DNA from: Minisyncoccota bacterium
Lineage (GTDB): Bacteria > Patescibacteriota > Minisyncoccia > Phycocordibacterales > CALRHW01
Reading direction: 5' to 3'
DNA: 64,000 bases
Assembly: GCA_046350795.1 (NCBI GenBank)
Contig: JAXLZT010000001.1
Location: forward strand, 181,780 to 245,779
The notes below the pieces were generated by a model. It worked only from the letters and a program-made list of their open reading frames with translations, ran no database searches and was not told where the DNA came from. Both the position numbers and the translations under genes were made by a program. Below are positions 17,475 through 33,829 of this stretch, piece after piece. Numbering within the stretch: the stretch's first letter is position 1; each line of letters opens with the position of its first letter.

Positions 17475-17483
17475 TTTTTCTTT

Positions 17484-18056: not shown

Positions 18057-18130
18057 GGCTGTAATGATAGCAGAATTTGCCTTTTTGAGCGATATTTGTT
18101 ACTGTATCCGATACATTTCAATATATAAAT

Positions 18131-18394
18131 ATGCCAATTACAACTTCAGCAAAAAAGGCGCTTAGAAACTCAAATCGAAAACGAGTTTTTAACATGCGAA
18201 AAAAGGAGGGCGTTCAGGCTGTATTAAAGAAGTTTAAAAAGCTTGTTGCAGAAAAGAACGCAAAAGAAGCGTCCAAATACCTATCTACAGTACAAAAAAC
18301 TATAGATAAAGCATCAAAAACAGGACTTTTGAAGAAAAACACAGCTTCAAGAAAAAAGTCTAGACTTGTAGCCATGGTAAAAAAGCTCGGCTAA
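18131..18394 (+). CDS. rpsT: 30S ribosomal protein S20
   Basis: 87 aa; MPITTSAKKALRNSNRKRVFN... classic bS20. Confidence 0.85.
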   Translation: MPITTSAKKALRNSNRKRVFNMRKKEGVQAVLKKFKKLVAEKNAKEASKYLSTVQKTIDKASKTGLLKKNTASRKKSRLVAMVKKLG

Positions 18395-18402
18395 TGTAAA
18401 AC

Positions 18403-18430
18403 AAAACACCCGAAAGGGTGTTTTGTTTTA
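18403..18430 (+). terminator. Rho-independent terminator (AAAACACCC-GAAA-GGGTGTTTTGTTTT)
   Basis: Read directly after rpsT. Confidence 0.75.
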
Positions 18431-18482
18431 TCGAATTACACAATCCCTTTTATTATTCGATTTTACATAATAGAATTAGTAT

Positions 18483-20054
18483 ATGATTCTTAAAAGATTC
18501 ATCTTTTCTTTTACGGTTTTTATTTTCTGTTGGATTTCTGTTACTTCTATCGCAAATGCTTCCGGAGAAGCTTGTTACACTTTTCCTAGAAACCTAAAGA
18601 TGACTGATAGGGGTATAGATGTTTGGTCATTACAAAAATTTTTAAATACAGATCCAAGGACACAGATTTCACAGTACGGGGTAGGATCTCCTGGTAAAGA
18701 AACAGACTACTTTGGACTACTTACCGCTAAAGCAGTCTCTAGGTTTCAAGAGCTTTATTCTAATGAGACACTTTTACCAGCCGGCCTTACGAGCGGAACT
18801 GGTTTTTTTGGTATAGCTTCTCGTTTGAAGGTTTTAAAAATATGTTTAGAGGGATTACTTGGTCAAGGTGCCGCACCCCTAGAGTCTACACAATTACCAG
18901 TAGCTCAAAACACCTCTATACCCACAGCGTCTTCTCAGAGTGTTACTTTAAATAAGGGTGGTTCTGTGAATGATTATGTAAATAAGTTCATAGTCTGGTA
19001 TCAAATTGCTGGTTCTATTCCTAGTACTCCAGAAAATAAATTAATCAGAGAGGTAGGATGGTTTCCTCCAACACCAGAATATTGGAATAATTTTGCGAAT
19101 AGAATTAAAAACAATGAAATGCAGATTGGTGTAAAGAGAATTGTTTTATGGAGCCCGTTTGGTTTTAGCTACGATAGCCCAGAGCCGATTCAATTTGATC
19201 AATACTTAAATGCACAAGTAGATACTCCATGGCTAGTTAATAATTTTGTAAATGCATGGAAACCGATTACTCAATCTGGCGTAGAAGTAATAGCTTATAT
19301 AGGCAGTCCTTATATAGATGAAAAACAAGTTGCTTTAATAAACAATCAAAGTGCGTGGTGGGATAGGGCATGGTCAGCAGTAAAACCATTTAAAGATGCT
19401 GGAATGTCTATTGCTTTTGATGCTGTTGTGGGACAGTCGGAGAGCTCTATGGACTATCAGCTTGCAGAAGCTTTGCGCAATCAGGGTGTGAAAGTGTATG
19501 TTGAGTCTAGACCGCGCTACAACCTTTCTCATTGGAATCAGTCTCATTACGGAGTATTTATTGATAACTATTTCTTTTACAGAAGTGATCCAGAAAGATA
19601 TGCGGATGCTAGCGTATGGCAGGCTGTAAAAAATTCTGATTTGAAAGGTGAGACTATTAGAATGGTCTTATATGAAAATGGACCAAATCTACCAAGCGAT
19701 GTGCCGAGTGATTATATTGGTCAGGCAAAAAGTGTTTTAAAGGATGGTGATTCAGTGGCTATTGGTGGTACTTTAGTAAATGCTTCTACTCCGCTTTCAT
19801 CTTTTTTACCAACTGGTGATTCTTATAAAATAATAACTCTGCAGGGCAGTGATCCTGATGGCGGAACACTCACTTTCTCCATTACAAGCAACCCGCAACA
19901 CGGCACACTCACTCAAACTGGAAGTGGTGGAAAAAAAGTTAAATATAAATTGACATCATCTTCTTTTGTTGGAACGGATTACTTTACATACACAGTAAGT
20001 GACGGGCTACATACCTCTCTACCAGCTACAGTATCTATACAAGTAAAAAATTAG
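18483..20054 (+). CDS. Secreted protein with N-terminal peptidoglycan-binding-like domain and C-terminal Ig/cadherin-like repeat
   Basis: Signal peptide; LQKFLNTD...GSPGKETDYFGLLTAKAVSRFQ (PG_binding_1-like, paralogous to 51311 gene); C-terminal TFSITSNPQHGTLTQ...TDYFTYTVSDG. Confidence 0.5.
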   Translation: MILKRFIFSFTVFIFCWISVTSIANASGEACYTFPRNLKMTDRGIDVWSLQKFLNTDPRTQISQYGVGSPGKETDYFGLLTAKAVSRFQELYSNETLLPAGLTSGTGFFGIASRLKVLKICLEGLLGQGAAPLESTQLPVAQNTSIPTASSQSVTLNKGGSVNDYVNKFIVWYQIAGSIPSTPENKLIREVGWFPPTPEYWNNFANRIKNNEMQIGVKRIVLWSPFGFSYDSPEPIQFDQYLNAQVDTPWLVNNFVNAWKPITQSGVEVIAYIGSPYIDEKQVALINNQSAWWDRAWSAVKPFKDAGMSIAFDAVVGQSESSMDYQLAEALRNQGVKVYVESRPRYNLSHWNQSHYGVFIDNYFFYRSDPERYADASVWQAVKNSDLKGETIRMVLYENGPNLPSDVPSDYIGQAKSVLKDGDSVAIGGTLVNASTPLSSFLPTGDSYKIITLQGSDPDGGTLTFSITSNPQHGTLTQTGSGGKKVKYKLTSSSFVGTDYFTYTVSDGLHTSLPATVSIQVKN

Positions 20055-20055
20055 T

Positions 20056-20127
20056 GCTCTCAGTAGGAATCGAACCTACATCGCAAGCTCCGCAAGCTCG
20101 CATTCTATCCATTGAACTATGAGAGCA
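20056..20127 (-). tRNA. tRNA, anticodon read as GCG (Arg) by hand-folding; isotype uncertain
   Basis: Acceptor GCTCTCA/TGAGAGC, T-arm GTAGG-TTCGATT-CCTAC; anticodon arm CGAGC-TTGCGGA-GCTTG contains a 9-bp tandem duplication (cgcaagctc x2 on + strand). Confidence 0.6.
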
Positions 20128-20153
20128 ATCAAAAGCAGGTTATCACGAAATAG

Positions 20154-20615
20154 TTAAAAACCAAAATACTCAGCCAATTTTTGAAAAAATGGCTCGTGCA
20201 TTTCGTCTTCGTAAAGTACTTCTTGTAAGTATTCGCGTATGTCTTCGGGGTGTACGGTATCAAGGCGTATGACCAAGAGGGGGAGGAAGAATCTTTGTGA
20301 TTTTAAAAGTAGCACAGGAGGATTTTCATTTTCATTTATCCAAAAAGAATCAAGTGATTTATATGGATAATGAAAATTATCTATAGTCACACCTCTGCTA
20401 TCTATTTTTACTTTATGTATTTTTGGTTGTCGCACGGCGTGCAACACCAAAGAGAAGGTTGCTATAAGTATTAGGATACCAAAGAGTAAGTTGCCCCAGA
20501 TAATAGATGCTAGGGCAATTGAAATAGCTATTATACCAACAGCCCAAAACCAATCGTTACTTTTTTCTTCATGATGATGTTCTAGAGCTTCCCACTCCAA
20601 TGGAGAATTTTTCAT
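20154..20615 (-). CDS. Hypothetical membrane protein (two TM helices after acidic/His-rich N-terminus)
   Basis: 153 aa; FWAVGIIAISIALASIIWGNLLFGILILIATFSLVLHAV. Confidence 0.45.
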   Translation of the reverse strand: MKNSPLEWEALEHHHEEKSNDWFWAVGIIAISIALASIIWGNLLFGILILIATFSLVLHAVRQPKIHKVKIDSRGVTIDNFHYPYKSLDSFWINENENPPVLLLKSQRFFLPLLVIRLDTVHPEDIREYLQEVLYEDEMHEPFFQKLAEYFGF

Positions 20616-20663
20616 ACGTAAATTGTATCACAGCACACCGATGACCTCCATATTTTCTGTGAA

Positions 20664-20710
20664 TAGAAAAACCCCGTACCGGCAGCAGTGTGGTGCTGGT
20701 CGGTACGGGG
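20664..20710 (-). terminator. Minus-strand rho-independent terminator (12-bp stem CCCCGTACCGGC/GGTCGGTACGGGG + U-run)
   Basis: Seen downstream (minus sense) of the 20761-21195 gene. Confidence 0.65.
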
Positions 20711-20760
20711 CGCTCTGGGAGGTTGTTTGGATTGGTGTGCGCGAGCGTTGGTGCTCGACG

Positions 20761-21195
20761 CTACTTCTCCGGAAGATCGTTCCACTCACCGATGGTCAAG
20801 CTGTGCTTGGGCATGGTGGTGAAGATGAGGTACTCAGCAAAGCTTGATGAGAAAAACTTGATCTCATCGGTCCCTTCGCTGAAGTCACAGCAGTTGTGGT
20901 CGTGATAGACCGTGCCCCTTGCCACGAAAGATGCTTTGTGGGTTTCTTTGCACCCCACCCAGACGAGTTCCATCTGGATCAGTGTGCAGTCTCCGGCCAT
21001 GAGATCCTTCTCCGTGCCCCCCACAACCCGAAACCCCGTGACCTCGTATGGGGGGAGCTCGGTGCAGATGGCTTTTTCTCCATCTGCCATCTTGCGTTCC
21101 TGGTTCTTCTTGGCGTGTTCCTTGCGGAACAGTTCGTTGGTCTCCTTGAGTAGGCCACTTTTTGTGGCCCCCTCTTTTGCGGTCTCTGTCGGCAT
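20761..21195 (-). CDS. Hypothetical protein, GC-rich gene
   Basis: 144 aa, no recognisable domain; GC3-rich; own terminator. Confidence 0.45.
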   Translation of the reverse strand: MPTETAKEGATKSGLLKETNELFRKEHAKKNQERKMADGEKAICTELPPYEVTGFRVVGGTEKDLMAGDCTLIQMELVWVGCKETHKASFVARGTVYHDHNCCDFSEGTDEIKFFSSSFAEYLIFTTMPKHSLTIGEWNDLPEK

Positions 21196-21325
21196 GTGTG
21201 TATCCTCCTTGGGGATAGTGTTGGTGTGCGTGGATCTAAAGACAATATTACTCAGGCAATCATTTTTTGCAACAAAAAACAGCCCGACACTAGTCTGGCC
21301 GTTTTTGTAATTTTTTAGAGAAAAA

Positions 21326-21580
21326 TTATGAAAGATGCTTTGAAACGAGCTTTGTCATTTCAAACATGTTTACAACACCCTTTCCTCCAAACACTGCCTT
21401 TAGGGCTGCGTCTGCGTTGATGTTTCTTTTGTTAGCTGAATCTTGAAGATTGTTCTTCTTGATGTATGCCCACAAAGCCTTTACAACCTCTGATCGAGGC
21501 ATTGGTCCTTTTCCCACAACAGCTGCCAATTCTGGACTTACGTTGAGGGGTTTCATAAATGCTGAATTTGGTTTTGCCAT
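21326..21580 (-). CDS. SWIB/MDM2-domain protein (stand-alone)
   Basis: 84 aa; MPRSEVVKALWAYIKKNNLQDSANKRNINADAALKAVFGGKGVVNMFEMTKLVSKHL closely matches SWIB consensus. Confidence 0.7.
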   Translation of the reverse strand: MAKPNSAFMKPLNVSPELAAVVGKGPMPRSEVVKALWAYIKKNNLQDSANKRNINADAALKAVFGGKGVVNMFEMTKLVSKHLS

Positions 21581-21728
21581 ATTTTCAAATTAATTATTAA
21601 AACCTAATACGGATATTGTATCAGAAGGGGTTTTTTGCGCCATAGGGTATACACAGGAGCATAAGATAGCTCTTGTTTTAGACATTTATAAAATATTGTG
21701 TTAATTTTTATTTTAGAAAGGAGTAGAA

Positions 21729-22328
21729 ATGAAAAACCAGTGTGTTTTTTATCAAGCAATTGAACTTGCCAACTGGACTCATCGTGAACAAAGGAGGAAG
21801 GTTACCAAAACACCATATGTGGTACACCCACTTCATGGCGTGACCATTCTTCTGACACACGGTGTGAGTTTGGATGATCCAGACGGACTCGACATCTTGG
21901 TTGCCGAGGTGTTGCACGACGGACCGGAGGACAATGTTGTGGATTGTCCCATCAGTCTCATCGAGAGTCTGTTTGGGCGAGAGGTGGCCAGGATTGTGAG
22001 CAATGTCACTCTGGACCACAAAAACCCAGACAAACAGCTGTCGCGTCAAAAGATCCTGGGTTTGGATTGGAAGACGCGTATCGTCAAGACTGCGGACGTG
22101 ATGAGCAACACCGTCTCAACGGTGTGCAACATCGAGAGGTTCGGCCTCAGGGAGGTGCTAAAGCACTCGAAAAAACCAATCGCCAGAAAGATTGCCATGG
22201 AGCGCGAATTCTTGTCTGGCGTGTGTCGAGAAGGAGATCCAGTAACCCTTATCCAATTGCAAAGGAGCGCATTGCGGTTTGTTGACAAGCTGGCAGAACT
22301 CACAAGCACAGCTCATGCCAACACCTGA
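21729..22328 (+). CDS. HD-domain phosphohydrolase resembling RelA/SpoT (p)ppGpp-hydrolase (small alarmone hydrolase-like); GC-rich gene
   Basis: HREQRRK...PYVVHPLHGVTILL...LVAEVLHDGPED matches H-x-x-Q-x-R / PYxxHPL / LHDxxED hydrolase motifs. Confidence 0.6.
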   Translation: MKNQCVFYQAIELANWTHREQRRKVTKTPYVVHPLHGVTILLTHGVSLDDPDGLDILVAEVLHDGPEDNVVDCPISLIESLFGREVARIVSNVTLDHKNPDKQLSRQKILGLDWKTRIVKTADVMSNTVSTVCNIERFGLREVLKHSKKPIARKIAMEREFLSGVCREGDPVTLIQLQRSALRFVDKLAELTSTAHANT

Positions 22329-22346
22329 TTTCGTTTCCGTGTTTTA

Positions 22347-22380
22347 CCGGCTTCCCCATGAAAAGGGAAGCCGTTTCTAT
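22347..22380 (+). terminator. Rho-independent terminator (CCGGCTTCCC-CATGAAAA-GGGAAGCCG + TTTCTATT)
   Basis: Read directly after HD gene. Confidence 0.7.
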
Positions 22381-22395
22381 TGTATAATTTAAACT

Positions 22396-22761
22396 ATGAA
22401 AAAATATAAAATAATTTTTTGGATTACTACGGCGGTGATTTTTTTGTTTGAGGGCGTGATGCCAGCGCTTACTTATCAATCAGAGATGTCCATACAAGGG
22501 ATTACAAGCTTGGGCTATCCTGTGTATTTCGTCACGTTACTCACTGTTTTCAAGGTTTTGGGATCACTCGTGCTTATTATTCCAATCATTCCGTCTCGCG
22601 TAAAAGAGTGGGCTTATGCCGGCTTTGCTTTTGATTTTATTTTCGCGCTTCTAAGTATGTGGATAGTGGTTGGCTTTGGTGTAATGTTGTTGCCTCCAGT
22701 AATAGCTTTGGTAGTGCTCTTGCTTTCATATGTTTCGTATCACAAGGTTATCTTAAAATAG
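22396..22761 (+). CDS. DoxX-like small membrane protein
   Basis: 121 aa, 4 TM helices. Confidence 0.45.
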   Translation: MKKYKIIFWITTAVIFLFEGVMPALTYQSEMSIQGITSLGYPVYFVTLLTVFKVLGSLVLIIPIIPSRVKEWAYAGFAFDFIFALLSMWIVVGFGVMLLPPVIALVVLLLSYVSYHKVILK

Positions 22762-22764
22762 TAG

Positions 22765-23277
22765 GTGATGTTTGTTGTTGTAAATGACAAAATGCAAAAG
22801 GGTTATCAGTACGAACTCTCTGAAAAGATGGGTGAAAATTTTGCGCCGGAATTTAAGCCAGACCTTACACCAAAAGAAATGCTTGAGATGGGCGTGTTTG
22901 GTGGGGTATATATGAGGGATTGTGTAGATGAGTTTCCGTCTGATTGGTTTGTAAAGGCAAAATTTGCACCAAAAGACACAAAAGAACACTTGGCCGAATT
23001 AAACTTTTTCAAAATAAACGCAAGTCAGCCACTGTCTGTCTGGAAAAAGAAGGGCTGGATTTATCATGAAGATCCGCGAGGGTGGTTTCAGTGGTATTGC
23101 CGGTATTATATGGGGCGCAGAATTTCAAAAGAGGATGAGAGGCAGATAAAAAGGTGGAAGGCTATCAGTAGACACATAGCTCAAGTGCAAAAAAACTGTC
23201 GCGCAGGCGATGCAATGTGCCGACCACGCCAACGTCAGGCGATACTACACTGGGCATATGATAGTAGAAGAGTTTAG
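22765..23277 (+). CDS. Hypothetical protein (Trp/Tyr-rich motif GWFQWYCRYYMGRR)
   Basis: 170 aa, no family recognised from memory. Confidence 0.4.
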   Translation: MMFVVVNDKMQKGYQYELSEKMGENFAPEFKPDLTPKEMLEMGVFGGVYMRDCVDEFPSDWFVKAKFAPKDTKEHLAELNFFKINASQPLSVWKKKGWIYHEDPRGWFQWYCRYYMGRRISKEDERQIKRWKAISRHIAQVQKNCRAGDAMCRPRQRQAILHWAYDSRRV

Positions 23278-23380
23278 GAGTAGGAAAAGCGATAGAAATA
23301 ATTGAATCTTGACCCCATTTCTCCGATGCCTTAGTCTAGGGACAGAATCTTTGACATCACCCCCCCACAAGGAGTAAAAA

Positions 23381-24490
23381 TTGAACACAAACAATGTTCC
23401 TACCATTTGCCTGACGGGTGGACCCTGTGCGGGCAAGACCACCATCCTTAGTCGTTTGCAAGAGAGGCTCGATGACCTTGGCTTTGCGGTGGTTGTGGTG
23501 CCTGAGGTGGCGACAGAGTTCATCTCTTCAGGCATCCGGCCTGCTTTGATCGAGCCACACCGCTTTCAGTGCCACATCCTTGAGCACATCATGGCCAAGG
23601 AAGATCGTTTCAAGGCGCTCGCTCAGATCATGTCTGTCGACAAGAAGGTCGTCATATGTGATCGAGGCGCAGTCGATGCTGCTGCATACATGTCGCCCAT
23701 GCATTTTGACTTGATGCTCGGCCAGCTTGGACTCACTGTCGTCGACTTGCGTGACGCTCGATACGACGGCGTGGTGTTCTTGCGTTCTGTTGCGGTGGAC
23801 GCTCCCCATATCTACACCTGCGATAACAACAAAGCTCGCAGGGAGTCAGTAGAGGAGGCTTGTTTGATCGACGAGTGTACGCTCGCTGCGTGGACTGGAC
23901 ATCCGCACTTGCGTGTCATCGACAACAGCACCGATCTCGAAGGCAAATCACATCGGGTACTTCAGGCGATTTGCAGAGTGCTCGGCATCCCCACACCCCT
24001 GGAGATTGAGAAAAAGTACCTGGTGAACCAGTGCGATCTCAGTCGTCTTCCGCTTCCTCATCGGTCTGTGGAAATCGAACAGTACTACCTCAAGACCGAA
24101 GACGGAAAGGGAGTGGAACGTATTCGTCGACGAAGTCAGTGTGGAGGCTTTACTTACTACCACACTGTGAAGCAGGATCTTCGCTCCGGTGTGCGTATTG
24201 AGAATGAAAGTCAGATCACCGAGGCCGAGTTCCTGATCCTCCTGCAAAGAGCAGATCCGGAGTTTGGCAAGATCGGAAAGACCCGGTACTGCTTTCTGTG
24301 GAACAATCAGTACTTTGAGCTCGACGTGTTCCACAACCCCTCCGGCCTGGTTCTGCTCGAGATCGAGCTCACGGAAGAGAACGACTTGGTCATCTTGCCA
24401 GACTTTCTCGTGGGCCATGTGATGGATGTAACTGGCAGCGATAGGTACAGCAATGTTCAAATCGCTCGTCGAATCGTAGCCGGGGTGTGA
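23381..24490 (+). CDS. P-loop nucleoside/nucleotide-kinase-like domain fused to C-terminal CYTH (triphosphate tunnel metalloenzyme) domain; GC-rich gene
   Basis: Walker A ICLTGGPCAGKTT (AAA_28/uridine-kinase-like) then EIEKKYLV...YYLKTEDGKGVERIRRR...LLEIELTEE (CYTH EIERKF-type start and acidic tunnel residues). Confidence 0.6.
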   Translation: MNTNNVPTICLTGGPCAGKTTILSRLQERLDDLGFAVVVVPEVATEFISSGIRPALIEPHRFQCHILEHIMAKEDRFKALAQIMSVDKKVVICDRGAVDAAAYMSPMHFDLMLGQLGLTVVDLRDARYDGVVFLRSVAVDAPHIYTCDNNKARRESVEEACLIDECTLAAWTGHPHLRVIDNSTDLEGKSHRVLQAICRVLGIPTPLEIEKKYLVNQCDLSRLPLPHRSVEIEQYYLKTEDGKGVERIRRRSQCGGFTYYHTVKQDLRSGVRIENESQITEAEFLILLQRADPEFGKIGKTRYCFLWNNQYFELDVFHNPSGLVLLEIELTEENDLVILPDFLVGHVMDVTGSDRYSNVQIARRIVAGV

Positions 24491-24516
24491 TGCTGTTCGT
24501 TCGCCAAATGAAACAA

Positions 24517-24549
24517 GGCCCGCGCTTCCTCAAGCGCGGGCCTTTTGCT
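24517..24549 (+). terminator. Rho-independent terminator (GGCCCGCGC-TTCCTCAA-GCGCGGGCC + TTTTGCT)
   Basis: Read directly. Confidence 0.7.
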
Positions 24550-24587
24550 GTGTAGTTCTCTTTAATAGGCTATATGTACACTCATAG

Positions 24588-24616
24588 CAAGAAAAAGGGC
24601 CGCCAGGTGGCGGCCC
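24588..24616 (-). terminator. Minus-strand terminator (GGGCCGCCAGGTGGCGGCCC hairpin, U-run on minus side) for the 24701-25219 gene
   Basis: Read directly; convergent with the preceding terminator. Confidence 0.6.
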
Positions 24617-24700
24617 TTTGGGGGGGGTGTGTGAACAGTAAATACAACTCTGCTCGTTCACCCAAAACGGTGTCGAGGACTTACTTCTCTTTTACAGCTA

Positions 24701-25219
24701 CTACTCCAGTGTGGCGAGAACGAGGTCGCGATCTGTCAGGACGCGATTCTTGATCTGCCTTGTGCCGTCTTCCTGCACGACGTAGGTCGTGACGTAGTAC
24801 TCGCGATAGGAGAGAGACACCCTCCTACCGTTGTACAGACTCCACTGATTGTAGAGCTGTGGACCGTTGAGGATGAGGTTGAACCCAGGTGCACGGAATG
24901 CTGTCGTGTACACCGGAGACCCCCTCGAGCTCTGTGGACCGTACTGGTGACGGTGGTTGTTCTCACGGTTGACTTCAGCCATGATGGGGAAAGGGAATGA
25001 CCTTACCCTCACCAACGGAAGCACGATCTCTCTCGGGTCATCAGCAGTCTCCACCGTTGCGACACAATTCATGGTGTCGGAGTGTTCATGCACGTAGAGC
25101 AGCTTCTCGCTGGGGAAGTACTTGTCGTTGATGAAGACCGTTCCACAGATCATGAACGTGGCGACCAGAGTGATGGCCATCGTGATTGCATGCGGGTTTC
25201 TCTCAGCCCAGTTGGGCAT
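24701..25219 (-). CDS. Hypothetical N-terminally membrane-anchored protein; GC-rich gene
   Basis: 172 aa; TM MAITLVATFMICGTVFI; no domain recognised. Confidence 0.45.
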   Translation of the reverse strand: MPNWAERNPHAITMAITLVATFMICGTVFINDKYFPSEKLLYVHEHSDTMNCVATVETADDPREIVLPLVRVRSFPFPIMAEVNRENNHRHQYGPQSSRGSPVYTTAFRAPGFNLILNGPQLYNQWSLYNGRRVSLSYREYYVTTYVVQEDGTRQIKNRVLTDRDLVLATLE

Positions 25220-25361
25220 TTTCTCTCCTTTCCGTAAGTGACTCTGCAGAAGAAAGCCTGAACGAGTGTCCAGGAGAACTTTCTAGACCTAATAATATCA
25301 TATTTAATGCGACAAGTCAAGTATGTGGAGCCTCGTAGAGGCTGTTAGAGCGTATTATAAC

Positions 25362-25757
25362 CTAGCTTTTGTAAGAATCCTCTGAAATGAATTCAAGACT
25401 ATTTCCGCTTGGATCTCTGAAATAGATGGATTGAATATTTTCTTCCCACGAAACTTCTTTTTCGATAGACACTCCGTTTTGTTTTAGTCGATCAGACCAG
25501 TAGGGAAATTCTTCATTTGGAATACCAAACGCTATGTGTCCTTGTCCAACAGAACCATGTACAGGAACAACACCTCCAGATATTTTTGTTTTTTCAGGAT
25601 TAAATAAAATAAGAACGCTGTCACCACAGCGTAAAAAAATATTTCTGCCAGGGGTTTCGTCTATTTTTTCAAAATTCAGGATTTCTGTGTAAAATTTTTC
25701 TGCTTTTTCAAGATCATCAACGTAAAGCGAAGTTTCTAAGATTTTTTTAATTTTCAT
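25362..25757 (-). CDS. Glyoxalase/bleomycin-resistance/VOC-family protein
   Basis: IKKILETSLYVDDLEKAEKFYTEILNF...HIAFGIPNEEF...FRDPSGNSLEF; start set at MKIKKI (ATG 25755-25757). Confidence 0.7.
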   Translation of the reverse strand: MKIKKILETSLYVDDLEKAEKFYTEILNFEKIDETPGRNIFLRCGDSVLILFNPEKTKISGGVVPVHGSVGQGHIAFGIPNEEFPYWSDRLKQNGVSIEKEVSWEENIQSIYFRDPSGNSLEFISEDSYKS

Positions 25758-25771
25758 ACGTTGATTATAAC

Positions 25772-25797
25772 AAAACCCGCAGTTTTGCGGGTTTTGT
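25772..25797 (-). terminator. Minus-strand terminator (AAAACCCGCA-GTTT-TGCGGGTTTT) ending the lexA-divergent small-protein operon
   Basis: Read directly. Confidence 0.6.
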
Positions 25798-25981
25798 CTC
25801 AAGCGGGGTAGATATCCTGAGGCTTGAACCGAAAGTACGGCTCAAATTCAAGGATATTGATCAAATTATACAGAAACTAAGGGTTGTCTACAAAGTCCAT
25901 CCCGAGTGATTTGAGGTGCTAAAACCTAAATCAACCAAAGGTAAAAATGTAGCGGATTATAGTATTTCTTAAGTCTGTGCA

Positions 25982-26314
25982 TTAATGAAACCAGTGCATC
26001 ACAATATCTATTGCCAAAATTGCTGTAGCGACAGCAGAGATGGTCGTTGCTACCATTATACACTTGGTTAAGCTTAGGGCCTTTTCAGTTAGCGACTCGG
26101 AAGATTTATTGAATTGATCTAATCTATAGTTTAAATCCGCTATTCGCTTAGTGAGATAACCAACCTGTGTTCCAATTTGACTTCGAGTGTTTGCAATCCC
26201 CGTTGTCATTAATTGCATGGCTCTCGTTAGGCCTTTCATACCACTTGGGGTAGCGCTCTCATGAGCTAAATCCCATTCTGACTTCTCTAACTCTGGAAAT
26301 TGGTTTGTACTCAT
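25982..26314 (-). CDS. Small tail-anchored membrane protein (paralog A), ~111 aa
   Basis: Start taken at MSTNQFPELEKSEWDL; C-terminal TM IMVATTISAVATAILAIDIVMHWFH; N-terminus paralogous to the next gene. Confidence 0.5.
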   Translation of the reverse strand: MSTNQFPELEKSEWDLAHESATPSGMKGLTRAMQLMTTGIANTRSQIGTQVGYLTKRIADLNYRLDQFNKSSESLTEKALSLTKCIMVATTISAVATAILAIDIVMHWFH

Positions 26315-26319
26315 GATTT

Positions 26320-26583
26320 TTATAAAGCTAAAATTATTTGAATAATAAGTCCTACAAGCATCGCTACTGTTAAACCGACAATACACCATGTAAGGCCAAC
26401 TAGTTTATCTGTTTGTTTAGAAGATTGATTATTGAAAGTTTCGATCGTTTCTTGTAGTTTGCTTAATGCACGTCTAGTTAATTCATCAGAAGCGAGTGAG
26501 CCGTAATGTGGGCTTGATTGATTTATCAATTGCCATAATTGTTTGTCTTCCGAATCTTCAAGTTTTGGAGAAAAATTAGTCAT
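26320..26583 (-). CDS. Small tail-anchored membrane protein (paralog B), 87 aa
   Basis: MTNFSPKLEDSEDKQLWQL...; C-terminal TM LVGLTWCIVGLTVAMLVGLIIQIILAL. Confidence 0.5.
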   Translation of the reverse strand: MTNFSPKLEDSEDKQLWQLINQSSPHYGSLASDELTRRALSKLQETIETFNNQSSKQTDKLVGLTWCIVGLTVAMLVGLIIQIILAL

Positions 26584-26600
26584 AATTTTATTAAGAGATG

Positions 26601-26819
26601 TTAGTCGTTTAGTTCTTTGCGTGCTAAGAGCATTATTTTCTTTCTTCCTTCGCTCGGACTTACTTTCTTTGCTGCATCGAATAACGCTTCTTTTATATTA
26701 GCCTTTGTTTTGTCTGGGAACTGTTTTTTCAATTGGTTTATTGCATAATAAACCTCATAGTTTTGCTTGAAGCTGATCAAGTTTTGATCCCCCTGTATTT
26801 TATTTTTACTGTCTGCCAT
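26601..26819 (-). CDS. Small basic hypothetical protein, 72 aa (first gene of lexA-divergent operon)
   Basis: MADSKNKIQGDQNLISFKQNYEVYYAINQLKKQFPDK... Confidence 0.45.
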   Translation of the reverse strand: MADSKNKIQGDQNLISFKQNYEVYYAINQLKKQFPDKTKANIKEALFDAAKKVSPSEGRKKIMLLARKELND

Positions 26820-26852
26820 TTTGATTAAAATTAGTTAATAATTAAACCTTGA

Positions 26853-26899
26853 AATCTGTGGATAAACCACTTGATTAGGTATTTGTAAGGCATTATACT
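26853..26899 (+). promoter_or_regulatory. lexA promoter TTGATT-N17-TATACT with overlapping inverted repeat AATCtGTGG-ATAAA-CCACttGATT (candidate LexA operator) in the lexA/small-protein divergent region
   Basis: -35 at 26871-26876, -10 at 26894-26899, ATG at 26906 (leaderless or near-leaderless); palindrome core GTGG-N5-CCAC at 26858-26870. Confidence 0.4.
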
Positions 26900-26905
26900 T
26901 TAGGT

Positions 26906-27532
26906 ATGGAAAATAAGTCAAGTCTTGGAATAGGCAAACCATCAAAGCGACAGGCCGAAATTCTACAATTCATTACGGAATTTAGGAAAAAGAAAGGATA
27001 TGCCCCCTCTCTTGCAGAAATTGCAGACAATTTTAGTGTATCTGTTCCAACTGTCCACCAACACGTCTCTTATCTAAAAAGAAAGAATTTACTTGCAACA
27101 GAGAAAGGTAAGAGGAGATCTATTCAAGCGATGAATATTAACAAAAGCGGCGTGATAGAAATACCGCTCATGGGTCTGATTGCCGCGGGTGGACCGATTG
27201 AGGCAATTCGGGACCCTCGGCCGATAGAAGTACCTCGTAACATGGTTTCTGTTGGCTCAAATTTCTATGCTCTTAAAGTAGCCGGCGCTAGTATGATCGA
27301 GGATGGTATTTTTGATGGCGACATTGTGATCGTAAAAGATCAACCCACGGTGGACGACGGAGAAAAAGCTGTTGCATACTTGCCCGATAAAGATGTGGTC
27401 ACTTTGAAAAGAATTTACCGCGACAAAAACCGAATCAAGTTAGTTCCTGCCAACAAAAGCATGAAGCCCTTTTACGAAACAAATATTGAAATACAAGGAA
27501 AGGTCGTTGGTGTTCTAAGGAAAGAAAATTAA
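26906..27532 (+). CDS. lexA: LexA repressor (wHTH + S24 peptidase)
   Basis: SKRQAEILQFITEFRKKKGYAPSLAEIADNFSVSVPTVHQHVSYLKRKNLL (LexA DNA-binding), VAGASM...KRIY (Ser/Lys dyad region). Confidence 0.85.
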   Translation: MENKSSLGIGKPSKRQAEILQFITEFRKKKGYAPSLAEIADNFSVSVPTVHQHVSYLKRKNLLATEKGKRRSIQAMNINKSGVIEIPLMGLIAAGGPIEAIRDPRPIEVPRNMVSVGSNFYALKVAGASMIEDGIFDGDIVIVKDQPTVDDGEKAVAYLPDKDVVTLKRIYRDKNRIKLVPANKSMKPFYETNIEIQGKVVGVLRKEN

Positions 27533-27544
27533 GTAATCGCTAGT

Positions 27545-29425
27545 ATGGCATCACAAATTCATGAAGAAATAAATAAATATCTATCAGCCAATGTGGGGGC
27601 TAATTTTGAATGCCTTGAAAGCGCATTAATTAGCGCAGTATTAAATACGTCCAAAAAATACAAAATAAAGAACGAAATAATAAATAAGGTAATTTCACTA
27701 GAAAGTTCCGATAGAGAAATTGCCTATAAATGGATAATCGAGAATATAAAAGAGCCGAGTATCGCACATGTTTTGATACTTTATGAGGTTTGTGTTTCTC
27801 CGGAAAATCGTAAGCTTGATGGTGCGTATTTTACTCCTGACAGTATTGTAGATGCTATCGTTGATTTGACGGTTGGGAATATGGTTGGTTCTATTTGTGA
27901 TCCAGCTTGTGGAAGCGGAGCTTTTTTGCTTGGATCACTAAAAAAACTTCTACTAAACAATGCAGGGTCAATAGATGAAGTGCTTTCTAAATATATATGG
28001 GGTATCGACATTAACGGTCAGAATGTTGAGCATTCTAAAAGAATACTTTCACTTTACGCTGTTCTTGAAGGTGTTGATAAAAAACACTTTGATATTGGGA
28101 TTTTTCAAGGTAACAGCTTAAATTTTTCATGGCAGAATACTCCGAGAAAAAAAGCAGAGTTTGATTTTATAGTCGGTAACCCCCCTTATGTCAGAGGTCG
28201 AAATTTAACTCCAAAACTAAAATCCCAGATCAAATCGTGGTCGTCTGCTAATGGTGGTATTGCAGATTTGTATATTCCTTTTTTCGAGATTGGCCTTACT
28301 TGGGCAGCAGATGATGGAAGGATTGGGTATATTACACCAAATACATACTTCTCATCAATTAATGGTCGTGGGGTCAGGAAAATGATCGTAGGTAAAAAAA
28401 TTCTTGAGAAAATTATTGATTTTGATGGATTTCCCGCATTTGAAGGCTTACTCACCTACACCTGTGTCACGATTCTTGATAAAAGCGGTGTGATCGAGCC
28501 GTTAATTGGAATGGCAAACTCCTTTAATCAACTCCAAGATATTCGGCGAATTAAACTTTCCAAAATAAATTATTCAGAACTTGAAAATAATGACTGGTAC
28601 ATACGTCCTCCAGATATAACACGTAACCTGCGAATGATGGAGAGGGTCGGTACACCACTAGACACTTACGTTCCTAAATTTACTACCGGCGTTGCAACCC
28701 TGCGAAATGACCTGTACATTTTTGATGGCCCAATAAAAAATGGATTTCTCTTTGTAGAAAGAGATGGAAAGCTTTTTAGAATTGAGGCAGATGCTACTGT
28801 GCCAATAATTAAACCAAACAAAATAAAGACAGAAGAGCAATTAAAGAAGAACTCGGAAAGAATTCTTTATCCCTATCGCTTCGTGTCTGGTCGTAAAAGA
28901 CCAGAACTTATACCGGAGGCTGAATTTAGTAAAAGTTTTCCAGGAGCTTACTCCTATTTACTACACTATCGAGCCGATTTAGAGAAACGTTCAATGGATA
29001 AGGGATCTGCTTGGTATGCTTTCGGTCGTTCGCAGGCACTTGATGGATTTGGTAAGAAAATTATTTTCCCAATGATGTCAGATCGTCCAGTTTTCTTACA
29101 TGTTACAGACCCAAATACTTTAATATACTGTGGATATGCACTTTATTCTGATTCAGAAGAAAAGACACAGATTTTACTGAAAATATTAAATTCTTCTGTC
29201 TTTTGGAATTATTTAGCGAATACCAGCAAGAATTATGCTAACGGATACAAGTCGCTAGCAAAAAATTATGTTAAAAAGTTTTCAATCCCCAAGTTTTCTA
29301 ATGTAGAAATTAAAAAATTGATGGCAATATCGGGAAATGATCTAGAATATTTCTTGAAAGAAAAATATTCTAACTCTATCGTGTCGCCCCAGATGCGTCA
29401 GGGGGAGCTACAACTTTTTTCCTAA
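27545..29425 (+). CDS. Gamma-class N6-adenine (Eco57I/TaqI-like) DNA methyltransferase, 626 aa
   Basis: Motif X YFTPDSIVDAIV, motif I DPACGSGAFLL, motif IV VGNPPYV in gamma order; long C-terminal TRD-like region. Confidence 0.75.
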   Translation: MASQIHEEINKYLSANVGANFECLESALISAVLNTSKKYKIKNEIINKVISLESSDREIAYKWIIENIKEPSIAHVLILYEVCVSPENRKLDGAYFTPDSIVDAIVDLTVGNMVGSICDPACGSGAFLLGSLKKLLLNNAGSIDEVLSKYIWGIDINGQNVEHSKRILSLYAVLEGVDKKHFDIGIFQGNSLNFSWQNTPRKKAEFDFIVGNPPYVRGRNLTPKLKSQIKSWSSANGGIADLYIPFFEIGLTWAADDGRIGYITPNTYFSSINGRGVRKMIVGKKILEKIIDFDGFPAFEGLLTYTCVTILDKSGVIEPLIGMANSFNQLQDIRRIKLSKINYSELENNDWYIRPPDITRNLRMMERVGTPLDTYVPKFTTGVATLRNDLYIFDGPIKNGFLFVERDGKLFRIEADATVPIIKPNKIKTEEQLKKNSERILYPYRFVSGRKRPELIPEAEFSKSFPGAYSYLLHYRADLEKRSMDKGSAWYAFGRSQALDGFGKKIIFPMMSDRPVFLHVTDPNTLIYCGYALYSDSEEKTQILLKILNSSVFWNYLANTSKNYANGYKSLAKNYVKKFSIPKFSNVEIKKLMAISGNDLEYFLKEKYSNSIVSPQMRQGELQLFS

Positions 29426-30080
29426 AAGCAGCAACGATATTATCAAAAAAGTTCTCTAGCTTTAGTTCTACTTGGCTTGGGAAAACATCCGAGAGTTCCG
29501 GTGGATTAGCATTAAAGTCAATAACACAATACGCAACATTTTCATATTTTGTAAGCTGAGTATCAGCTCGTCGAATTTTAAAGAATAGTTGGTTAGATGC
29601 AGCCTCATAGTTGAATGAGCCAACCGGCCCAACAGGTTTCTTTGTTGGTAAATCAGATAACGGATGCAGATACACCAATCCAACAGAGCAAGTTGGGAAT
29701 TGCTCGTGTATACTCTCAACTTCACCAGCTTTCATTCTAATGTAGTTATTAAAATTCTTGCCGATTGATGTCATCTGACTACGAACGTCCACGATTAATA
29801 CTGGTTCACCTCGCTCATTTAGAACACCAACATCAGCCTCAACTTTCGTGCCTTCGACTTTAAACTTGGCTTCTTTTTCTATTTTAAATCTAAGATCTTC
29901 AATACCGCGTTTACGTAGTTCATTTTCGCAATAATCTTGAAACAATGTAATAAAAGCTTTGCTTCTAACAGCTTTTGTTGGGTCTTTAATGAAAAGATCC
30001 CTCATTTTAATTAGGGTTTTAGTAAGTTCTGTGGTGTCGATAGCTATATTCTTATTTTGCTTCGGTTTTAACTTGGACAT
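29376..30080 (-). CDS. Putative type II restriction endonuclease partner (hypothetical)
   Basis: 234 aa, convergent with and overlapping the MTase 3' end by ~50 bp; no confident PD-(D/E)xK assignment by eye. Confidence 0.35.
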   Translation of the reverse strand: MSKLKPKQNKNIAIDTTELTKTLIKMRDLFIKDPTKAVRSKAFITLFQDYCENELRKRGIEDLRFKIEKEAKFKVEGTKVEADVGVLNERGEPVLIVDVRSQMTSIGKNFNNYIRMKAGEVESIHEQFPTCSVGLVYLHPLSDLPTKKPVGPVGSFNYEAASNQLFFKIRRADTQLTKYENVAYCVIDFNANPPELSDVFPSQVELKLENFFDNIVAAFRKKVVAPPDASGATR

Positions 30081-30081
30081 T

Positions 30082-30171
30082 TGGCGGAGGAGGTGAGATT
30101 CGAACTCACGGGACCCTTACGAGCCCTCTTGTTTTCAAGACAAGTGCATTCGACCACTCTGCCACTCCTCC
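30082..30171 (-). tRNA. tRNA-Ser (anticodon TGA), long variable arm, CCA encoded
   Basis: Acceptor GGAGGAG/CTCCTCC, anticodon loop CTTGAAA, variable arm AGGGCTCGTAAGGGTCCC; 90 nt. Confidence 0.8.
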
Positions 30172-30225
30172 AGAGATTGTCGCGCTTTTGCCCTACGGCC
30201 ACGCGTCAATCGGTCTATATTTATG

Positions 30226-30468
30226 CTATTTCTCTTCTGTTTCAGACACCACTGTATATTTTTTTGCCACGAAATACAAGTATATGATATCCAGTATTCC
30301 AACGGTATTGATTACCAAAATGGCAATAAACCATTTTTTATGCGACAGCTGAGCTGATCGCCAAAGGGCAAGACCTTTCCAAATAATGCTCCACAGCATT
30401 ATGGCAAATGCCAAAGCGGGGTGATTACTAAAGAAAAGCTCTACATTTTTTATATTTTCTACGAGCAT
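30226..30468 (-). CDS. Small two-TM membrane protein
   Basis: 80 aa; LAFAIMLWSIIWKGLALW / WFIAILVINTVGILDIIYLYFV. Confidence 0.45.
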   Translation of the reverse strand: MLVENIKNVELFFSNHPALAFAIMLWSIIWKGLALWRSAQLSHKKWFIAILVINTVGILDIIYLYFVAKKYTVVSETEEK

Positions 30469-30507
30469 GGGAGATATAATAACAAAAAAGTCTGATATAT
30501 TAAAGAT

Positions 30508-30948
30508 ATGAGATATTTAGGTATAGATTTTGGTAGTAAAAGGGTGGGCGTCGCTCTGTCTGATGAAGGCAACTCTTTTGCCTTACCTTTAAAAGTACTT
30601 CCAAATGACAAAAATCTGCTCGATGAGATACAAAAAATTTGTCAGCAAAATGATGTGGGTTGTGTGGTGATGGGGGAGTCAAAGGACTTTAGCGGAAAAG
30701 ATAATCCAATAATGGAGAGAATAAATGATTTTGTGGCACAGCTATCTCTGACGATGCCTGAAGTGCGCATAGAGCTCGAGCCAGAGTTTCTCACGAGTGC
30801 ACAGGCAGAGCGTCTGGGCAATCGCCGGCCAGATAGAGAAGTAGAGAGGACTAGGCAAAAAAAGGGGAAAAACGAAATGCTCGACGCTTCATCGGCGGCG
30901 TTGATTCTGAAAAGTTTTTTAGAAAAGTGTGCGAATGATAAAAAATAA
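30508..30948 (+). CDS. ruvX: YqgF/RuvX putative pre-16S rRNA nuclease (RuvC-like resolvase fold)
   Basis: MRYLGIDFGSKRVGVALSDEG... hallmark N-terminus. Confidence 0.8.
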   Translation: MRYLGIDFGSKRVGVALSDEGNSFALPLKVLPNDKNLLDEIQKICQQNDVGCVVMGESKDFSGKDNPIMERINDFVAQLSLTMPEVRIELEPEFLTSAQAERLGNRRPDREVERTRQKKGKNEMLDASSAALILKSFLEKCANDKK

Positions 30949-30952
30949 AAAT

Positions 30953-31279
30953 ATGATATCAATAGATGATTTTAAAAAAGTAGAAATAAAAGCAGGAAAA
31001 ATTTTGACTGCAGAAAAGGTGCCTGACACAGACAAGCTTGTGCGACTCACTGTGGATTTTGCAGAAGAGACTCCGCGACAAATAGTGTCTGGTATTGCTA
31101 TGCATTTTCCTGATGTCTCGGCGCTCGTGGGAAAGACTTGTACTTTTATTACAAATCTAGAACCTCGCACCATAAAAGGTTTGGAAAGTAACGGAATGAT
31201 ACTTGCTCTGTCGACAGAAAACGCTTTTTCTCTTTTAGAACCTTCTTCTCCTGTGCCACCCGGTACTTCTGCACACTAG
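30953..31279 (+). CDS. tRNA-binding domain protein (CsaA/Trbp111, EMAP-like OB fold)
   Basis: ISIDDFKKVEIKAGKILTAEKVPDTDKLVRLTVDF...GMILAL. Confidence 0.7.
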   Translation: MISIDDFKKVEIKAGKILTAEKVPDTDKLVRLTVDFAEETPRQIVSGIAMHFPDVSALVGKTCTFITNLEPRTIKGLESNGMILALSTENAFSLLEPSSPVPPGTSAH

Positions 31280-31321
31280 TTTGTCTACATACACAAAAGA
31301 ATAGTATATAATTATTCTTAC

Positions 31322-32299
31322 ATGAGTAAGAATTTCTTTGATTTTTTCCCTCCACCAAAGTTTTTAGAAATGCCTGCAGTGGGTTTTTCTATTTCTGATA
31401 CCAGCCTACGCTTTGTAGAGCTTCGCGATCATGAAGGTACTTTTATTCTCGGTGATTATTCACAAAGAATTATTCCGCCGGGTGCGATAGATGCTGGATA
31501 TATCAACAAGCCAGAGCAAGTCATAGAAATGTTGAAGGAGTTGAAGAAGCAATACGGCCTAAAATTTGTAAAAGCTACGCTACCTGAAGAAAAAGCTTTC
31601 GTCTTTCGTACACAGATTCCAACGACTGTCCCAGAAGAAATGCGAAGTGCTGTGGAGTTTACTATAGAGGAAAATGTACCAATGTCTGTGGCTGACGTAG
31701 AGTTTGATTTTACCGTTATACCCCACGAAGCAACAGAAGATGGCCATACAGATGTGGCTGTATGTGTGGTGCCAAAAAAAGTGATAGATGCATATCTAGC
31801 TCTTTTTACAGAAGTAGATCTTACCGTGGTTTCCTTTGAGCTTGAGTCTCAGGCTATCGCACGGTCTATTGTTTCTGTAGGTGATACTGCATCTTATCTG
31901 ATTTTAAATTTAGAGAAAAATAAAACTGGTTTTTATATCGCTACTGCAGGCGCAGTACATTTTACATCCACAATGTCTATCACAGCCGACACTTTGCCAG
32001 AGCTTTCTGAAGAGATTAGTAAAATATATTGGCATGCTCATGGAGAGAAAAAAGAAAAGGGTGGCACGACTATTGTAAAAATTCTTCTTTGCGGAGAGGG
32101 AGCTGTGAAAGATGGTGTAAAAGAATATATTTTCAATAAGCTTGGTATAGAAGTAGAAGTGGCAAACGTTTGGAAAAATGTTTTTGTTCTTGATAAATAT
32201 GTGCCCGATATTACACAAAAAGATTCTTTTGGATTTGCGGCTGCTATTGGCCTTGCTTTTCCTAGCACCGGAAAGATAATTAAAAAAGAAGAAAAATGA
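31322..32299 (+). CDS. pilM: Type IV pilus assembly protein PilM (actin-like ATPase)
   Basis: 325 aa; FFDFFPPPKFLEMPAVGFSISDTSLRFVEL; context with pilN/pilO. Confidence 0.7.
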   Translation: MSKNFFDFFPPPKFLEMPAVGFSISDTSLRFVELRDHEGTFILGDYSQRIIPPGAIDAGYINKPEQVIEMLKELKKQYGLKFVKATLPEEKAFVFRTQIPTTVPEEMRSAVEFTIEENVPMSVADVEFDFTVIPHEATEDGHTDVAVCVVPKKVIDAYLALFTEVDLTVVSFELESQAIARSIVSVGDTASYLILNLEKNKTGFYIATAGAVHFTSTMSITADTLPELSEEISKIYWHAHGEKKEKGGTTIVKILLCGEGAVKDGVKEYIFNKLGIEVEVANVWKNVFVLDKYVPDITQKDSFGFAAAIGLAFPSTGKIIKKEEK

Positions 32300-32832: not shown

Positions 32833-32836
32833 AAAT

Positions 32837-33457: not shown

Positions 33458-33458
33458 A

Positions 33459-33788: not shown

Positions 33789-33829
33789 GCTGGATTATTT
33801 GCGCTGATACGGGTAATATGTCAATTATT

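Follow-up and report, generated by a model that had tools for sequence, protein, structure and literature searches.

Flexible islands of the replacement type occupy a fixed locus between conserved core genes and have been described in marine Alteromonas and Pelagibacter. Fixed-locus hotspots for restriction-modification (R-M) and other defence systems are likewise established, such as the "immigration control region" of E. coli and defence hotspots flanked by core genes. In B. subtilis, lexA is divergently linked to yneA, which encodes a small membrane cell-division inhibitor. Here we describe a tract of about 10 kb between two tRNA genes of a Paceibacteria genome, analysed within a stretch of 64,000 nucleotides (the window; contig JAXLZT010000001.1, positions 181,780 to 245,779), whose first letter is position 1. 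The organism is an uncultured member of the Patescibacteria, and proteins identical to its own bear the NCBI name Candidatus Paceibacterota. The tract is a real gene-exchange hotspot. Its youngest layer is a strain-variable cassette in which lexA is directly followed by a type II R-M system. We consider it probable that the tract is this genome's copy of a plasticity zone shared across the class Paceibacteria, with a layered fill, exchange of cassettes and a lexA module.

ARAGORN and Rfam both detected the two bounding tRNA genes, within 1–2 nucleotides of where a preliminary description of this DNA had placed them. That description had both 3′ ends facing inward; in fact both genes lie on the minus strand, so the 3′ end of tRNA-Ser alone faces the tract. 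The 3′ end of tRNA-Arg points outward, toward a Big_9 gene. The elements that define the tract and its variable part are as follows.

20054–20126, minus strand: tRNA-Arg(GCG), the left frame element, with its 5′ end toward the tract (ARAGORN, Rfam).
30082–30171, minus strand: tRNA-Ser(UGA), the right frame element, with its CCA end abutting the cassette (ARAGORN, Rfam).
25360–30082: the strain-variable cassette, 4,723 bp, 36.9% GC (blastn breakpoints against other strains).
25220–25359: intergenic region shared by the strains, with a 6-bp hairpin (25329–25343); the left breakpoint lies between 25359 and 25360.

Exact-protein look-ups with the flanking RuvA and RuvX retrieved independent assemblies of the same species. 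Two Logan contigs match the window at 99.97–100% across the tract (L009, covering 20508–35814, and L002, covering 16177–28056). The metagenome-assembled genome (MAG) GCA_964417815.1 (L001/L008) and Logan contigs L003, L010 and L012 are 99.1–99.4% identical to the window up to 25359 and again from 30083; between these positions, strains of this type (variant B) carry an unrelated segment of 3,450 bp. Genes on the variant-B cassette specify a regulator of the TrmB family, a secreted protein of 273 aa, another protein of 267 aa and a GhoS-like one of 94 aa. The last of these (Pfam GhoS, E 1.7e-4; L008 9190–9474) has a 64% identical homologue in L113 (1258–1542), about 430 nucleotides upstream of lexA. 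No copy of the variant-B cassette is present elsewhere in the window, and a reciprocal translocation was rejected on this ground.

Both junctions are sharp. The left one falls just past the shared hairpin, 2 nucleotides before the stop codon of a VOC gene, and the right one lies inside the CCA end of tRNA-Ser, which reads CCA in the window and CCT in the variant-B strain. Contigs L004, L011 and L014 end exactly at junctions, L004 at the left one (25359). Logan contig L191 equals window positions 25330–30111 at 100% identity, that is, the cassette alone with a 30-nucleotide overlap on each side; coexisting alleles that form a bubble in the assembly graph would be expected to give this pattern. 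The allele alternative to the window's cassette is thus a different 3.45-kb cassette and not an empty site; near-empty sites occur in distant species alone, for example L103. It follows that lexA is strain-variable, at this locus, in at least one natural population. The 90% identity cluster of the window LexA has a single member; the contig index is incomplete.

Single-nucleotide polymorphisms (SNPs) between the window and variant B form a mosaic, with about one SNP in 14891–18890 (against L001) and a density of about 1% elsewhere. Homologous exchange among the strains is therefore ongoing. The near-identical stretch, a recent recombination tract, spans a murE-like ligase gene, ruvA and the S20 gene.

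To place the tract in the class, GTDB species representatives were scanned with a RuvX alignment, which gave 80 loci whose RuvX proteins are all at most 55% identical. Close relatives came from exact-protein look-ups instead, and the RuvX-anchored loci total 88 (L016–L103). The order S20, tRNA-Arg(GCG), mem153, a gap of variable content, tRNA-Ser(UGA) and RuvX is found in 31 loci, comprising 29 GTDB species, the nearest other species compared (L016, RuvX 77% identical to that of the window) and the window itself. The gene mem153 is the conserved partner of tRNA-Arg in this frame.

20154–20615, minus strand: mem153, a 153-aa membrane protein without a Pfam family; conserved frame gene.

It had tblastn matches in 37 of the 80 species loci and is 73% identical in L016. 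The tRNA-Arg gene lies 31 nucleotides downstream of its stop codon in the window, and the median distance between the two is 45 nucleotides over the 31 loci. The gap between mem153 and tRNA-Ser ranges from 19 nucleotides in L103, where S20 and RuvX are just 739 nucleotides apart, to 9,467 nucleotides in the window, with other species reaching about 7,000. The gap contents have almost nothing in common: 139 open reading frames (ORFs) fall into 136 clusters, 116 of them singletons, with 82 Pfam families and a cargo that ranges from pilins and sigma factors to G6PD and malic enzyme. These comparisons show that the ancestral unit was a compact minus-strand array of tRNA-Ser(UGA), mem153 and tRNA-Arg(GCG), set between S20/RuvA and DUF5652/RuvX, and that unrelated genes accumulate directly downstream of the tRNA-Ser 3′ end. 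Such a frame is ancient; what fills it is a set of layers and not one island.

In the window the fill to the left of the cassette consists of the following genes.

20761–21195, minus strand: orph144, a GC-rich orphan of 144 aa (54.5% GC).
21326–21580, minus strand: SWIB-domain protein (Pfam PF02201, E 1.9e-31), 94% identical in L016.
21729–22328, plus strand: HD_4 phosphohydrolase (Pfam), 50% GC, species-specific.
22396–22761, plus strand: DoxX_2 membrane protein (Pfam), 79% identical in L016.
22765–23277, plus strand: hyp170, a hypothetical protein of 170 aa, 83% identical in L016.
23381–24490, plus strand: AAA_28 P-loop NTPase with a CYTH-type C-terminal half (Pfam AAA_28, E 2.7e-25), 53.6% GC, absent from L016.
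24701–25219, minus strand: orph172, a GC-rich orphan of 172 aa (55.3% GC), present in both strain variants and absent from L016.

L016 retains tRNA-Arg and mem153 as well as the SWIB, DoxX and hyp170 genes at the identities given, and at the position of orph144 it has a 128-aa gene whose product is merely 32% identical. It lacks the Big_9 gene, the HD gene, the P-loop-CYTH gene and orph172, and has Cupin_2, DUF948, TylF methyltransferase and DUF1653 genes instead; Cupin_2, DUF948 and an 82-aa gene stand at the HD_4 position. The comparison thus shows three layers in the tract: genus-level residents (orph144, SWIB, DoxX, hyp170), species-specific genes rich in GC (HD, AAA_28-CYTH, orph172) and the strain-variable cassette. 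The species-specific genes have 50–55% GC and their neighbours 33–43%. In all, four GC-rich genes stand at 50–55% GC against 41% for the whole window. The AAA_28-CYTH family is widespread in Patescibacteria, its best match other than itself being 66% identical. Its AAA_28 part is matched by Pfam in the window protein; the CYTH part is not, even at E ≤ 1, and is seen in homologues, many of which (45–66% identical, from Patescibacteria) carry PF01928.

The preliminary description had read the tract as accessory or hypothetical throughout, and as either a variable region at tRNA hotspots or a decayed island. Its calls of SWIB, HD, DoxX, P-loop, VOC, lexA and R-M genes agree with Pfam and PADLOC. 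The accessory label does not hold for two genes, mem153, a conserved part of the frame, and lexA, which is conserved under purifying selection (see below). The proposed synteny comparison was run, and gene order is not conserved in relatives; the right 4.7 kb differs among strains whose flanks are 99% identical, the middle of the tract differs from L016, and the gap contents across species are nearly all singletons. The reading as a variable region at tRNA hotspots therefore holds. A single decayed island is disfavoured by the layering, with at least three layers of different age and old resident DNA, and neither an integrase nor a tRNA-derived repeat was found. Among the 15 tract proteins no integrase or other recombinase family was matched, as the preliminary description had also noted; the nearest recombinase is encoded at 35952–37547, in an element at tRNA-His. 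A repeat search of 19500–31000 gave no direct or inverted att-type repeat above chance, and the tRNA-Ser end with the sequence that trails it has no second copy in 20100–30000, its best local alignments being no better than those of shuffled sequence. Repeats of the att type around the tract were rejected on these two grounds.

The cassette itself is organised around lexA.

26850–26905, plus strand: conserved lexA promoter region (69 distinct upstream sequences aligned by eye).
26906–27532, plus strand: lexA, 208 aa (Pfam PF01726, LexA_DNA_bind, and PF00717, Peptidase_S24).
27545–29425, plus strand: Eco57I-like type II gamma-class N6 DNA methyltransferase (MTase; Pfam PF07669 and PF02384; PADLOC MTase_II over the full length, E 3e-110).
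29376–30080, minus strand: predicted type II restriction endonuclease (REase), 234 aa (PADLOC REase_II PDLC03558, E 2.5e-9; no Pfam family).
30006–30081, minus strand: tRNA-proximal trailer, whose first 30 nucleotides (30080 down to 30051) match ATGTCCAAGTTCGAACCGAAGTAAAATAAG with 3 mismatches.

The MTase gene starts 12 nucleotides past the lexA stop codon and has its NPPY codons at about 28177–28188. Two contigs of the same cassette, L192 and L193, carry 1-nucleotide deletions that frameshift the MTase (at 28180–28185 and 27803); one of them shortens a run of six C to five in the stretch encoding the NPPY motif, and may be an assembly error, decay or phase variation. The REase gene is convergent with the MTase gene, overlapping it by 50 nucleotides, and its assignment comes from one profile. 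Its true start is probably Met26 (ATG at 30005), because 30051–30080, including the ATG at 30080, belongs to the conserved trailer.

To the left of lexA, the cassette holds two further features.

25362–25802, minus strand: protein of the VOC / glyoxalase / bleomycin-resistance family (Pfam PF00903, E 4.7e-16).
25982–26819, minus strand: sm135/110, sm87 and sm72, three small genes divergent from lexA (ORF calls; no Pfam or PADLOC match).

Two of the three small genes end in a C-terminal hydrophobic helix. Homologues stand upstream of lexA in some other species, with sm72 81% identical in L115 and L137 and sm87 90% identical in L151.

The association of lexA with R-M genes extends far beyond this genome. 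We analysed 87 LexA loci, drawn from the 80 most similar metagenome matches and a handful of look-ups. A type II R-M system lies directly downstream of lexA in all 87 loci with enough sequence, so that the linkage is shown to be invariant in this sample. A co-directional ORF begins at most 51 nucleotides past the lexA stop codon in 85 of the 87 (median gap 25 nucleotides), and 53 of 54 distinct complete downstream proteins belong to DNA MTase families (34 C5, 8 N6_N4, 8 Eco57I and 3 D12). At least 31 of 41 distinct convergent ORFs match type II REase models, from eight families. Loci that at first seemed to deviate proved to have an REase in the lexA orientation, an additional MTase, an overlapping start, or Vsr with a C5 MTase after it. 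Eight other LexA genes were looked up in unrelated neighbourhoods, and in each lexA was followed by a DNA MTase gene and a convergent ORF; C5 MTases were paired with an ORF product of 279–322 aa or with a HindVP-type enzyme, and N6_N4 MTases with an ORF product of 342 aa or with a BsoBI-type enzyme.

The R-M genes at this position are diverse. They cluster into at least 11 MTase and at least 14 REase groups, and relatives whose LexA is 90–92% identical to that of the window carry R-M systems unrelated to the window's. This shows that the R-M genes between lexA and the trailer have been replaced repeatedly, with fast turnover, and that lexA with its R-M pair is a module recurring across the class, not random cargo. 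The module occupies the tRNA-Arg / mem153 / tRNA-Ser / RuvX hotspot in L110, L124, L126, L152 and L170 as well.

LexA itself is strongly conserved. It is 78–93% identical across the best 120 homologue clusters listed, compared with at most 58% for RuvX outside the genus and about 40–69% for S20 and MurE. The Ala-Gly cleavage site IAAGGP and the Ser129/Lys168 dyad are in place, including the invariant residues A93-A94-G95-G96, S129 and K168. Four-fold degenerate sites of lexA are near saturation; because their identity is merely 0.27–0.47, the conservation reflects purifying selection and not recent transfer, and horizontal travel together with the R-M genes was rejected as its cause, given that synonymous and four-fold sites alike are near saturation. 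No relative of LexA was found in IMG/VR viral contigs, and a phage origin of the module was rejected accordingly.

The 55 nucleotides before lexA are also strongly conserved, with [TG]G[TG]GGATAA located 44–48 nucleotides before the ATG in 66 of the 69 distinct sequences. In the window a DnaA-box-like motif, TGTGGATAA (26857–26865), is followed by −35 and −10 elements with a repeated TAGGT, the −10 ending about 12 nucleotides before the ATG, and this promoter pattern occurs once in the window. Across Paceibacteria lexA promoters the DnaA-box-like motif reads TGTGGATAA (the reverse complement of TTATCCACA) or TGGGGATAA. Such a motif hints that DnaA may feed into lexA transcription.

The far side of the module takes one of two forms. 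In the clade of the window LexA (at least 79% identity), the R-M genes are closed by a minus-strand tRNA gene with its 3′ end toward the REase, usually tRNA-Ser (GCU, UGA, CGA or GGA) and occasionally tRNA-Lys or tRNA-Asp. A trailer of about 55 nucleotides with the consensus ATGTCCAAGTTCGAACCGAAGTAAAATAAGGGTTCTTGGGCTAAAATAAAGATT lies between the CCA end and the REase start; it is present in 23 LexA loci, beside at least six unrelated REase families, and neither the 88 RuvX-anchored loci nor the variant-B strain have it. These loci show that a conserved trailer and a tRNA gene close the module in this clade. No conserved RNA fold, covariation or Rfam match was found for the trailer, and a structured RNA or terminator was rejected on that basis. 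Fragments of tRNA 3′ ends adjoin it in L140, L108 and L118; in L140/L141 a tRNA 3′-half fragment lies beside tRNA-Asp. In L120–122 and L132 a second, imperfect copy of about 50 nucleotides (about 9 nucleotides of tRNA end plus trailer) is located 4.7–5.4 kb away, beyond lexA; the genes between the repeats in L120 and L132 are DUF4238, RmuC and DUF2188. In L120, a LAGLIDADG homing-endonuclease-like gene (8747–9745) overlaps the 5′ side of the tRNA-Ser(CGA) gene that closes the module. In a second clade (L156–L190, LexA 74–79% identical), a conserved Xre-type helix-turn-helix (HTH) gene precedes REases of different families, and appears to be a common C-protein-like controller, taking the place of tRNA and trailer in framing the far side.

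We hypothesize that strains swap cassette alleles by homologous recombination in their identical flanks, a process that would involve no resident integrase. Two findings favour this route: the other allele is a distinct cassette bounded by identical junctions, and recombination among the strains is visible. The modules may originally have been delivered by site-specific insertion at the ends of tRNA genes. For the module itself, a regulatory role can be proposed from its arrangement. The gaps between lexA and the MTase gene are too short for a terminator, so the MTase would be transcribed by read-through from the lexA promoter. In that case cleavage of LexA following DNA damage, self-restriction among its causes, would raise methylation capacity. 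We tentatively suggest, as an idea that falls somewhat short of an even chance, a dedicated docking site coupled to lexA, in which R-M systems of any family are slotted between the lexA 3′ end and the trailer (or the Xre gene in the other clade), with the MTase under LexA control and methylation raised by damage.

Several observations weigh against these proposals. The LexA loci were sampled chiefly by similarity, and lexA lies within 10 kb in none of the 80 RuvX-anchored GTDB species, so it is not a constant resident of this hotspot; these loci were required to have both anchors within 10 kb, which makes larger gaps undetectable. No donor or cassette-linked recombination tract was identified among the strains, and SNP density does not rise toward the junctions. 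An extended −10-like element, TGnTAnnnT, occurs in 40 of 65 distinct lexA–MTase junctions (the window's 12-nucleotide junction is not among them). The REase side shares no LexA operator with the lexA promoter: TTAGGT, AGGTAT and GGATAA are absent from 40 REase upstream regions, and a common operator was rejected for this reason. Finally, the same trailer abuts Ser-GCU, Ser-UGA, Ser-CGA and Ser-GGA tRNAs and tRNA fragments, which, together with the distant repeats, points to site-specific insertion at tRNA ends at some stage.

Alternatively, the adjacency of lexA and R-M genes may have no regulatory meaning, with selfish R-M systems persisting at a site tolerant of insertion or shielded by linkage to a selected gene. 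The quick turnover of R-M families, the separate promoter-like element for the MTase at many junctions, the tRNA on the far side, which is a classic insertion target, and the strain variant that lacks both lexA and R-M genes at this site are all in keeping with such persistence. A neutral hotspot, however, should hold cargo other than R-M genes too, as the neighbouring gap between mem153 and tRNA-Ser does, whereas the linkage is seen in 87 of 87 loci and in two clades that differ on the far side; the MTase gene is moreover always the one nearest to lexA and always runs in its direction, with a gap that leaves no room for a terminator. We regard adjacency without regulation as possible but rather unlikely.

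A similarly low probability is assigned to the arrival of the cassette, and perhaps of the older layers, by site-specific integration at the tRNA-Ser 3′ end, as an integrase-less, trans-mobilised island or its remnant, with tandem accretion. Such a reading takes the earlier decayed-island idea one layer at a time. Similarity between the strains ends precisely at the CCA of tRNA-Ser, and at tRNA-Lys and tRNA-His in the window too; a genuine serine-recombinase element occupies tRNA-His, 6 kb away. The recurrence of the trailer beside four tRNA-Ser isoacceptors and tRNA 3′ fragments in other species, and the imperfect direct repeats that flank the lexA module in L120–122 and L132, would also be natural products of such events. 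Yet no recombinase is encoded in the tract, nor between the repeats in L120 and L132, the tRNA end and trailer are single-copy in 20100–30000, and IMG/VR viral contigs hold no LexA relatives. Replacement is a better fit than insertion, because the other allele is itself a cassette, different in content but with a shared left boundary. A chimera of assembly or binning, suggested by the metagenomic source and by the contigs that break exactly at junctions, can be set aside with near certainty, since independent assemblies from other runs span both junctions at 100% or 99.97% identity (L009, L002) and separate contigs also run across the variant-B segment (L008 from NCBI; L003 and L010 from Logan).

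The exchange hotspot between tRNA-Arg and tRNA-Ser has neighbours. DNA that differs between strains or species begins at other tRNA 3′ ends of the window too, namely those of tRNA-Lys, tRNA-Arg and tRNA-His. At tRNA-Lys (3′ end at 12389), the strain-variable stretch 11500–12390 encodes a 218-aa membrane protein in the window and an unrelated 136-aa protein in the other strain, both without a Pfam family. At tRNA-Arg, a 523-aa Big_9/cadherin-like surface protein is encoded between S20 and the tRNA 3′ end (18483–20054). It is absent from L016, so the earlier statement that core genes resume outside the tract needs qualification on the left, where the flank is not purely core and the Big_9 gene is an insertion relative to L016. 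The distance from S20 to tRNA-Arg is 35 nucleotides in L016 and 5–2,553 nucleotides across species, which marks a second insertion point.

At the tRNA-His 3′ end, a 12.3-kb serine-recombinase element (35964–48243) is absent from MAG GCA_964417815.1. Its large serine recombinase gene (35952–37547) overlaps the tRNA end, and minus-strand genes likewise overlap the tRNA-His end in L016 and L017. The element also encodes HTH_36 and DUF5659 proteins, a copper P-type ATPase with HMA, DUF305, DsbD_2 with HMA, a cupredoxin, a NERD nuclease and a nucleotidyltransferase, and thus carries copper-resistance genes. Beside tsaE, at 6900–7770, lies an orphan ORF of 287 aa without a Pfam family, in an area merely 96.5% identical to the other strain; GC reaches 54% over 7001–8000, and GC-rich orphans are therefore not confined to the tract. 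The tRNA-Arg(UCU) gene next to tRNA-Val(UAC) has plus orientation in the window (33830–33902) and in L008 and L022 but minus orientation in L016 (13252–13324) and L017; these close relatives differ by a small inversion of one tRNA gene.

If the docking-site proposal is correct, an SOS-buffered restriction circuit would let minimal genomes, poor in regulators, replace their R-M systems often and safely. The lexA module as a whole could be gained, lost or moved between tRNA genes, and this would explain why a repressor conserved across the class sits in a strain-variable cassette. Taken alone, the tract is a flexible region of the textbook type, and its main value is as a record of a class-wide, tRNA-framed hotspot in the Candidate Phyla Radiation (CPR). 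The invariant lexA–MTase–REase linkage suggests a way for organisms with very small genomes to couple their principal defence against phages to the response to DNA damage and to limit self-restriction. The lexA promoter, the lexA–MTase junction and the trailer form a concrete circuit for heterologous testing, and the gene after lexA can serve as a simple genomic marker for active R-M systems in Patescibacteria. In the literature covered, neither a lexA–R-M operon nor a link of this kind to the CPR was found; the comparative work on the SOS network of Patescibacteria by Sanchez-Osuna et al. (2017, as cited in PMC8565304) lay outside that coverage and may mention MTases in lexA operons, so the claim to novelty is limited. 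A 2025 review of R-M biology makes no mention of LexA.

Among known systems, flexible islands resemble the tract most in form. Its position and conserved flanks are common to strains and species, its contents are non-homologous between near-identical strains, it has no mobility genes, and its exchange may plausibly proceed through recombination in the flanks. It differs from them in its frame, an array of a tRNA, a small gene and a tRNA that is conserved across a CPR class, in the age-layered content of that frame, and in a youngest layer that carries the core-type regulator lexA instead of surface-polysaccharide genes. Like tRNA-linked islands, integrative elements and prophage remnants, a class to which the serine-recombinase element at tRNA-His truly belongs, the tract abuts a tRNA 3′ end, varies among strains and includes some genes of atypical GC. 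Unlike them, it lacks an integrase, direct repeats of the tRNA 3′ end and an empty-site allele, and it is not one unit.

The lexA module shares with R-M and defence hotspots the replacement of unrelated R-M systems at one conserved position; its flanks set it apart: one is the gene for the SOS repressor, with which the MTase gene is placed as in an operon, and the other a tRNA and a conserved 55-nucleotide trailer. It also recalls R-M systems with a C protein, in that a gene for a DNA-binding repressor lies directly upstream in the R-M unit, where it could time or buffer expression, and in that the second LexA clade has a conserved Xre-HTH gene before the REase. However, C proteins are Xre controllers of about 80 aa that act at a C-box, whereas LexA, with 208 aa, is an autocleaving repressor of the S24 kind whose conservation does not depend on the R-M type. 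LexA moreover precedes the MTase and not the REase, no C-box was identified, and upstream of the window REase stands the trailer alone. As for lexA/yneA, the small genes of the cassette, two of them with C-terminal hydrophobic helices, are divergent from lexA and have a common promoter region with it; they differ in showing no sequence similarity to YneA, SidA or proteins akin to them and in being kept next to lexA in few loci.

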